Assembly: GCA_037129175.1 (NCBI GenBank)
Contig: JBAXVK010000003.1
Location: forward strand, 40,154-104,153
Source of the DNA: Polynucleobacter sp.
GTDB lineage: Bacteria; Pseudomonadota; Gammaproteobacteria; Burkholderiales; Burkholderiaceae
Direction of reading: 5' to 3'
Length of the DNA: 64,000 bases
The first letter of the stretch is position 1. Every line of letters starts with the position of its first letter. A model generated the notes under the pieces. It saw only the letters and a list, made by a program, of their open reading frames with translations, did no database searches and had not been told where the DNA came from. Made by a program: the position numbers and the translations under genes. Shown one piece after another: positions 1,856 through 2,426 of this stretch.

Positions 1856-1883
1856 AAAAAAGGGGTCTCATAGAGACCCCTTT
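1856..1883 (-). terminator. Intrinsic terminator, strongest on the minus strand, between the convergent pfkB and H1-like genes
   Basis: 9-bp stem aggggtctc/gagacccct with a 3-nt loop. U-run on the minus strand, short T-run on the plus strand. Confidence 0.85.
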
Positions 1884-1914: not shown

Positions 1915-2270
1915 TTAAGGACGAGTTCCAGTTGGGAAGGGCCAAGCAGCGGCAGTTGTTACTGATGCAGCTTTCTTAGCCGCGGGCTTTTTTACAGCAG
2001 GGCCCGCTTTCTTCGCAGCAGGTTTACTTACTTTTTTTTAGCTACACGCTTCTTTTTAGCAGCTGGACGCTTTTTAGCGGCTGGCTTCTTTTTTGCAGCT
2101 TTTTTAGCGGCTGGCTTCTTTTTAGCAGCTGGACGCTTTTTAGCGGCTGGCTTCTTTTTTGCAGCTGGACGCTTCTTAGCAGCAGGCTTCTTCTTAGCGG
2201 CTGGACGCTTCTTAGCAGCTACTTTTTTAGCAGCTGGTTTCTTTGCAGCAGGTTTTTTCTTTGTTGCCAT
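1915..2270 (-). CDS. Histone H1-like Lys/Ala/Pro-rich nucleoid protein; frame 0 stops at 2028 (80 aa), -1 frame continues to 1915 (118 aa total)
   Basis: AAKKxP repeats and a strong AAGGAG SD. The -1 frame from 2031 reads VSKPAAKKAGPAVKKPAAKKAASVTTAAAWPFPTGTRP*, with the AWPFPTG tail typical of Burkholderiales H1-like proteins. Confidence 0.85.
2041..2258 (-). repeat. Imperfect 15-18 bp coding tandem repeat (PAAKK[K/R])
   Basis: Repeated units such as gctaaaaagaagccagcc / gctaaaaagcgtccagct inside the H1-like gene. Confidence 0.85.
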
Positions 2271-2426
2271 GTGTGTTACTCCTTCACGTGAGGATTAGTA
2301 CGAACTAACGATTAAGAAGACCCGACCATTCATTTCCGCCTGGTTTTGCAACCAATTGGGCCTGACGAGCGAGCCATTCATCGGCGCGCGGCTTGATGCT
2401 AAGTGCTGCACGCTAATGAATCCTGG

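Follow-up and report, generated by a model that had tools for sequence, protein, structure and literature searches.

On the minus strand of the window, the whole 64-kb stretch of Polynucleobacter sp. DNA analysed here, lies a gene for a histone H1-like nucleoid protein whose reading frame breaks at a run of adenines. The frame-0 ORF (2028..2270, minus strand) begins with an ATG at 2270, closes with a TAA at 2030-2028 and encodes a short isoform of 80 aa, built of AAKK/PAAKK repeats and ending in the C-terminus VAKKK. A Shine-Dalgarno sequence, AAGGAG (2279..2284, minus strand), is read 8 nt 5′ of the ATG and is enclosed by the leader CTCACGTGAAGGAG, which is present in all orthologues whose leader is displayed. 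This leader (2271-2295, minus strand) also holds a CACGTG palindrome abutting the Shine-Dalgarno sequence, as do the displayed orthologues of classes C and D, and the conserved palindrome may be a regulatory or processing site.

The 3′ end of the gene reads GCT AAA AAA AAG TAA. Its A8 run (2032..2039, minus strand), with G as the next base at 2031, is the candidate slip site of RNA polymerase and/or the ribosome, and is overlapped by an A_AAA_AAG heptamer of the dnaX/IS3 type in the 0 frame (2031..2037, minus strand). The sequence TAAGTAA (2024..2030, minus strand) supplies a 0-frame stop at 2030-2028 and a +1-frame stop at 2026-2024, so that only -1 frame reading proceeds past the run. The tail ORF in that frame (1915..2031, minus strand) reads VSKPAAKKAGPAVKKPAAKKAASVTTAAAWPFPTGTRP up to a TAA at 1917-1915. 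It is open just two codons ahead of the end of the run, and the third frame is closed. The -1 frame sequence is KKVSKPAAKKAGPAVKKPAAKKAASVTTAAAWPFPTGTRP, and conceptual fusion to the repeat body gives a protein of 118 aa with the C-terminus ...AAAWPFPTGTRP. This C-terminal motif (1918..1953, minus strand) is conserved, and the same tail is found in Cupriavidus homologues. Separate initiation of the tail ORF was ruled out: the ORF listing of the window has no ATG, GTG or TTG start in the tail frame.

An intrinsic terminator-like hairpin with a T run (1859..1883, minus strand) follows the tail stop. The first-pass annotation had put the distance between the two at about 30 nt, and it was measured as 31 nt. 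That annotation had also read frame 0 as an 80-aa AAKK-repeat protein ending in this A8 run and stop, all of whose coordinates were verified, and the -1 frame as giving 118 aa with the AWPFPTG tail. The latter was recovered on re-reading the sequence and is joined by coding-type conservation in 171 genomes.

Recurrence of the frame break across Polynucleobacter

The orthologous locus was gathered and classified in 200 species-representative Polynucleobacter genomes. An identical -1 break at the same junction is present in 171 of them, comprising 133 class A genomes (A9, one A10), 10 of the GCT+A8 form, 7 of class A′ and 21 of class B; since the species are related, such genome counts exceed the number of independent observations. 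The source species falls within the GCT+A8 group, made up of the window's genome and nine other species, and eight of its nearest relatives (89-99% identity over the region) have the same GCT AAAAAAAA G TAA form. The break is equally found in 50 of the 63 single-contig assemblies and in named isolates. An exact-pattern scan of metagenomes provided 80 independent lake and river contigs, of which 78 require a -1 shift (72 with A9, 6 with GCT+A8), one has an A10 in frame and one was left unjudged because its upstream sequence is too short. That break, run and tail recur together in 171 of the 200 genomes is far beyond chance. Across species the short isoform varies between 49 and 122 aa and the long one between 92 and 163 aa, through gain and loss of PAAKK-type units. 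Similar gain and loss of repeat units is described for chlamydial Hc2.

The remaining lineages include in-frame alleles of several kinds. An in-frame A10 occupies the same junction in the basal lineages G059, G079, G150, G161 and G088, an A11 takes its place in the likewise basal, in-frame G020, and in a clade of 12 species the gene is continuous and lacks any long A run. In a tree of the upstream nrdB flank (about 1 kb of sequence), the broken state falls in clade B and in clade A+A′ with in-frame lineages between them, and at least four switches between the broken and in-frame states are required. Secondary restorations of the frame are seen in G014 (one extra base 5′ of the run), G071 (A7) and G147 (a deletion).

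Some individual alleles merit description in their own right. The deletion in G147 (locus L184), a class B genome, removed the A run and fused body and tail in a single frame of 84 aa from stop to stop, or about 70 aa from the ATG, producing a natural long-only allele. Two genomes, G056 (L055) and G087 (L103), one of them a single-contig assembly, carry GC+A8, in which one more A is lost and the tail lies in the +1/-2 frame. That tail is out of reach for a ribosomal -1 shift and would be reached by an mRNA with one A fewer or two more; provided that these are genuine alleles whose tail is still expressed, they would speak for slippage by the polymerase. A clade-C-like copy (L178, in G093) has a different break, GCA AAA AAA AAA GTA GCA AAA AAG TAG, in which an A10 precedes another A_AAA_AAG with TAG directly behind it, and the tail is again in the -1 frame. 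Either the same design arose here independently or the MAG is misassembled at this point.

Constraint on the tail and on the A run

Over the last 16 codons of the tail, nucleotide diversity among the 171 broken genomes is 0.088 at first, 0.055 at second and 0.306 at third codon positions, a pattern of purifying selection on the -1 frame of the tail. In the motif AAAWPFPTG(T/S)RP, 10 of the 12 residues are retained in 169-171 of the 171 broken genomes; the first Ala is invariant and the residue following the Gly alternates between T and S. The motif codons vary synonymously (CCC/CCT, ACT/ACC/ACA/ACG, GGC/GGT, CGT/CGC and CCT/CCA).

The tail by itself matches NF038053, the profile of a Burkholderiales histone H1-like DNA-binding protein (hist_H1_lk_Burk, NCBIfam), over positions 150-195, its last 46, with E = 3.3e-6, and a fused orthologue covers profile positions 67-195. 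Scores against this profile lie below its curated cut-off of 80 bits for both the fused 118-aa product of the window gene (26.3 bits) and its short form (18.4 bits), and a fused orthologue of 124 aa reaches 57.6 bits; the sub-cut-off scores of the Polynucleobacter proteins result from their short repeat body. A Cupriavidus homologue of about 204 aa, encoded in one frame, scores 108.4 bits. It ends in ...KTALNPAAAWPFPTGTRP, with a motif, NPAAAWPFPTGTRP, identical to that of the Polynucleobacter tail. Proteins of the NF038053 family have a body of Ala/Lys/Pro pentamer repeats, as in Polynucleobacter, and the C-terminal ...LNPAAAWPFPTG.RP tail is common to Polynucleobacter and Cupriavidus. In these relatives, however, body and tail are in one frame, whereas the Polynucleobacter proteins are split, shorter and below the cut-off. 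Given the homology of the tail to NF038053 and the one-frame Cupriavidus protein, the -1 frame restores the usual architecture of the family. Other searches returned little: the Pfam search gave a sub-threshold HC2 match only, and that of Rfam nothing near threshold. A protein homology search with the tail region, a short and low-complexity query, yielded no match at E <= 0.001, and none of eight exact short, fused or in-frame proteins is present in the protein cluster collection.

The run has constraints of its own. Its length is A9 in about 160 of the 171 broken genomes, and in the source genome and nine other species it is only A8. The terminal AAA AAA AAG is invariant, and in the same frame, in every broken genome classed. 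The codon 5′ of it ends in A in 144 of 151 complete broken genes (95%), being GCA or GTA in 143, whereas in the rest of these genes Ala and Val codons 5′ of a Lys codon are 15.5% A-ending and 77.6% T-ending. Lys codons elsewhere in these genes are AAA in 51% of cases, and the bodies of the 151 genes hold no further A run longer than A7. This codon usage indicates that the A run is under selection beyond coding needs. The bases after the run are similarly fixed: all broken genomes keep G-TAA-N-TAA, where N is G, C or T, and in-frame A10 lineages have G TAG T TAA, by which both other frames are likewise closed.

In the source genome as a whole, a draft of roughly 2.2 Mb in 136 contigs (90% complete), A/T runs of 5-7 occur at about double the iid expectation, runs of 9 number 9 where about 21 would be expected, and of runs of 10 or more there are none against about 7 expected. 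Depletion of long runs has been linked to slippage-prone lengths (Baranov et al., PMC1088944). Within long ORFs of this genome, an A9 or T9 is found, for example, at C104:74211 (in an 872-aa ORF), C44:932, C24:49901, C78:3631 and C93:60667, and the ORFs that bear them could be further slippage-sensitive genes.

RNA structure downstream of the run

Beginning 8 nt past the heptamer, the transcript of the window gene can form a hairpin, S1 (2003..2022, minus strand), in which CCUGCU (2022-2017) pairs with AGCGGG (2008-2003) across the loop GCGAAGAA. This 6-bp stem had been picked out in the first reading of the sequence, and its pairing and spacing hold; in the source genome its stability of -11.2 kcal/mol (z = -1.55) is equalled by 16 of 200 shuffles and is not significant alone. 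In S1 the source genome has a weak counterpart of the hairpin of 8-12 bp seen in class A, AGCCUGCU / loop / AGCGGGCU, which begins 6-8 nt past the heptamer in 142 genomes and whose consensus reaches -17.1 kcal/mol (z = -3.3 vs shuffles). A different hairpin in a similar place is found in class B1 (z = -2.9), where compensatory changes convert U-A to A-U and U-A to C-G. The corresponding values are z = +0.29 in class A′ (7 genomes) and weak in B2 (about 10 genomes), two subclades that both keep the break; in-frame A10 lineages have no such hairpin. The mean folding energy of the 40 nt past the site is -13.4 kcal/mol vs -7.5 in windows of the gene body. Alignment of the orthologues, which the first-pass annotation had listed as a check on frame break and hairpin alike, bears out the break (171 of 200) and finds a hairpin in most lineages but not in two subclades.

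A structure scan also detected an alternative hairpin, S2 (1982..2007, minus strand), formed by GCGGGC and GCCCGC around a 14-nt loop. Because S1 and S2 share an arm, they are mutually exclusive. Covariation in class A consists, for S1, of 87.5% pairing with a single compensatory cell, and, for S2, of one clean change (GCGAGC/GCUCGC in G024) and two further cells, probably artefacts of the alignment. On the plus strand the S2 stem has a terminator-like score (GCGGGC...GCCCGC, then TTTCTT), a signal that is probably incidental since it lies antisense within coding sequence.

Candidate mechanisms and known counterparts

Recoding at this locus is very probably programmed: slippage on the A run would give two isoforms of the Polynucleobacter orthologue of the histone H1-like protein found in Burkholderiales. 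The original suggestion of a possibly programmed break that gives a short and a long nucleoid protein is supported by the conserved break and by selection on tail and run; from these sequence patterns we infer the production of two isoforms, their ratio and the machine that slips. Standard decoding would end at the TAA after GCT AAA AAA AAG and release the protein made of AAKK repeats only, which is 80 aa long here, and some products would shift to the -1 frame and gain about 40 residues ending in AAAWPFPTG(T/S)RP. By either route of slippage, the predicted junction peptide of the long form is ...VAKKKVSKPAAK... (...VAKKKVSKP...). The primary and ancestral step would be RNA-polymerase slippage that inserts one A into the mRNA. 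The ribosome is a probable second contributor in most lineages, through a -1 slip on A_AAA_AAG that would be aided by the adjacent stop and, in most lineages, by the hairpin 6-8 nt downstream.

Programmed -1 ribosomal frameshifting of the dnaX type could instead dominate, with polymerase slippage as minor noise, which is the less probable reading. In it, two tRNA-Lys would slip back together, or the P-site tRNA would slip with UAA in the A site, and the hairpin would act as stimulator. Such a process agrees with an in-frame heptamer that is intact in all broken genomes, including the ten A8 genomes with their shortened run, and with a 0-frame stop directly 3′ of it. It agrees as well with the placement and stability of the class A hairpin, with the compensatory changes in that of B1, and with the absence of a hairpin from the in-frame A10 lineages. 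It agrees less well with a run held at A9, two bases beyond the need of the heptamer, or with the A10 of in-frame relatives, which is superfluous for a frameshift signal. Covariation in the class A hairpin is almost nil, and A′ and B2 retain the break without a good hairpin. Upstream of the heptamer, all classes have AAGCG(T/C)GTAGC(T/A) or similar, with no GGAGG-like Shine-Dalgarno stimulator, and ARAGORN detects a tRNA-Lys(CUU) besides tRNA-Lys(UUU) in the genome. In E. coli, reading of AAG by the UUU anticodon only makes A_AAA_AAG very shifty, and the presence of a tRNA-Lys(CUU) should lower this shiftiness. The overlong run, the A10 kept in frame, the presence of tRNA-Lys(CUU) and the breaks of A′ and B2 with no hairpin nearby also favour the polymerase, as do the closure of both alternative frames by stops and the genome-wide depletion of long runs. 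Transcriptional slippage, which the first-pass annotation had also mentioned, fits at least as well as -1 ribosomal frameshifting, and the polymerase is more likely than the ribosome to be the primary, ancestral actor. In E. coli reporters, shifting amounts to about 40% with 9 As and 10% with 7 As (PMC3711429). A caveat is that the A8 of the source genome and of nine related species should slip less at transcription.

The remaining explanations dispense with a programmed signal. That the break is a sequencing or assembly error in the draft, or that the gene is a dead fragment, is hardly credible: the draft is fragmented and incomplete and homopolymers are error-prone, but the break is shared by 50 single-contig genomes, named isolates and 78 metagenome contigs, eight of the closest species have the exact GCT+A8 form, and the tail is conserved in the manner of coding sequence. 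The mundane alternative raised at the outset, a sequencing error in the homopolymer or a recent deletion confined to one strain, is refuted by the single-contig assemblies, by the 78 of 80 metagenome contigs, by the nine other GCT+A8 species and by 161 species with A9 or A10. Phase variation at the DNA level, in which slipped-strand mispairing would toggle cells between short-only and long-only states, is very unlikely. Run-length variants do occur, namely A7 (G071), GC+A8 (G056 and G087) and A10 (metagenome contig L274), but they number only about five in some 250 assemblies and contigs, and the consensus is nearly fixed, unlike contingency loci, at which ON and OFF alleles are both common. 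Runs of 8-9 are, moreover, short for efficient replication slippage. Somewhat less improbable, but still unlikely, is a rescue by slippage, in which a mildly harmful deletion of one A was fixed by chance, only the long protein matters and the short form plays no part. In favour of this account are the in-frame A10 ancestors and the homologues encoded in one frame, and Tamas et al. reportedly described a comparable rescue by poly(A) tracts in endosymbionts in 2008. Back-mutation from A9 to A10, however, has a high rate and is seen (in one of the 80 metagenome contigs, with other restorations in G014, G071 and G147), yet 171 of 200 species and 78 of 80 contigs show the -1 state, which is found in free-living bacteria and in two separate clades. 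The persistence of this state despite easy reversion indicates selection for the broken state. Because repair to A10 is easy and found in nature and the split is nevertheless nearly fixed, the short form or the isoform ratio would be advantageous; this sequence record speaks against a defect that is simply tolerated.

The function of two isoforms can be approached through proteins of similar build. DNA binding and granule tethering are known of AKP-repeat proteins: AlgP acts on polyphosphate granules (PMC9239181), and PhaF, PhaM and an HC2-like protein of Herbaspirillum act on PHB granules (PMC3783465). The source genome encodes a PHB synthase. By analogy, one may speculate that the repeat body binds DNA, that the tail, which is aromatic and rich in proline, is a short motif for binding a partner or a granule, and that the short form acts as a tail-less competitor. 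A more elaborate proposal, and a rather unlikely one, is that the A run is a tunable device, in which the share of tail-bearing protein is set by the behaviour of polymerase or ribosome and is thereby coupled to physiological state. The share might respond to pauses before the base that follows the run (a G in all lineages), to growth rate and to the supply of tRNA-Lys or release factor at the UAA. AWPFPTG.RP would tether the nucleoid protein to PHB granules, polyphosphate granules or another partner, and the default would be reset by flips between A10 (mostly long) and A9 (mostly short), which would have occurred at least four times in the genus.

Polynucleobacter is among the most abundant genera of freshwater bacteria. 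If two isoforms are made, current annotation leaves out a C-terminal motif conserved in about 170 species and gives a wrong picture of what is probably a very abundant chromatin protein. The occurrence of in-frame A10, split A9/A8 and repaired alleles in close relatives, many of them cultured, makes the genus suitable for studying why a split gene is retained. The locus also offers an entry point to the role of the AWPFPTG.RP tail, which is common to Burkholderiales H1-like proteins.

Recoding on poly-A is well known from dnaX, from insertion sequences and from a few secretion genes. In E. coli dnaX and in IS3/IS911, the same A_AAA_AAG in the 0 frame yields a short and a long product from one gene. 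The Polynucleobacter site differs from these in the hairpin, which lies 6-8 nt downstream in most lineages but is weak here and missing in two subclades, and also in its lack of an upstream SD-like stimulator, in the presence of tRNA-Lys(CUU) and in the extension of the run to A9. The dnaX gene of Thermus thermophilus and a two-ORF dnaX with A10 use programmed transcriptional slippage on A9/A10 (PMC1088944, PMC3711429). Like Thermus dnaX, the Polynucleobacter locus has 9-10 As inside a cellular gene and stops close behind the run, and it would yield mRNAs framed in different ways past the run and two proteins with a common N-terminal part. The Thermus gene, however, encodes a replicase subunit whose templated frame gives the long product, whereas in the nucleoid protein of Polynucleobacter slippage would be needed for the long form, as in Shigella mxiE; for Polynucleobacter, this mechanism is putative. 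In mxiE and in tssM of Citrobacter rodentium, slippage restores the longer protein from a split gene (PMC1088944, PMC4256274). There, as here, the templated frame ends early, and an extra mRNA base unites, or here would unite, two ORFs, but mxiE and tssM are virulence or secretion genes of few strains or species, in contrast with a core nucleoid gene in about 170 species. The searchable literature contained no published description of recoding in Polynucleobacter or in a histone-like nucleoid protein, and none is given in the Atkins 2016 review or in the Antonov 2013 GeneTack paper. The class of mechanism is known; the gene family in which it would operate and its genus-wide conservation appear to be new.
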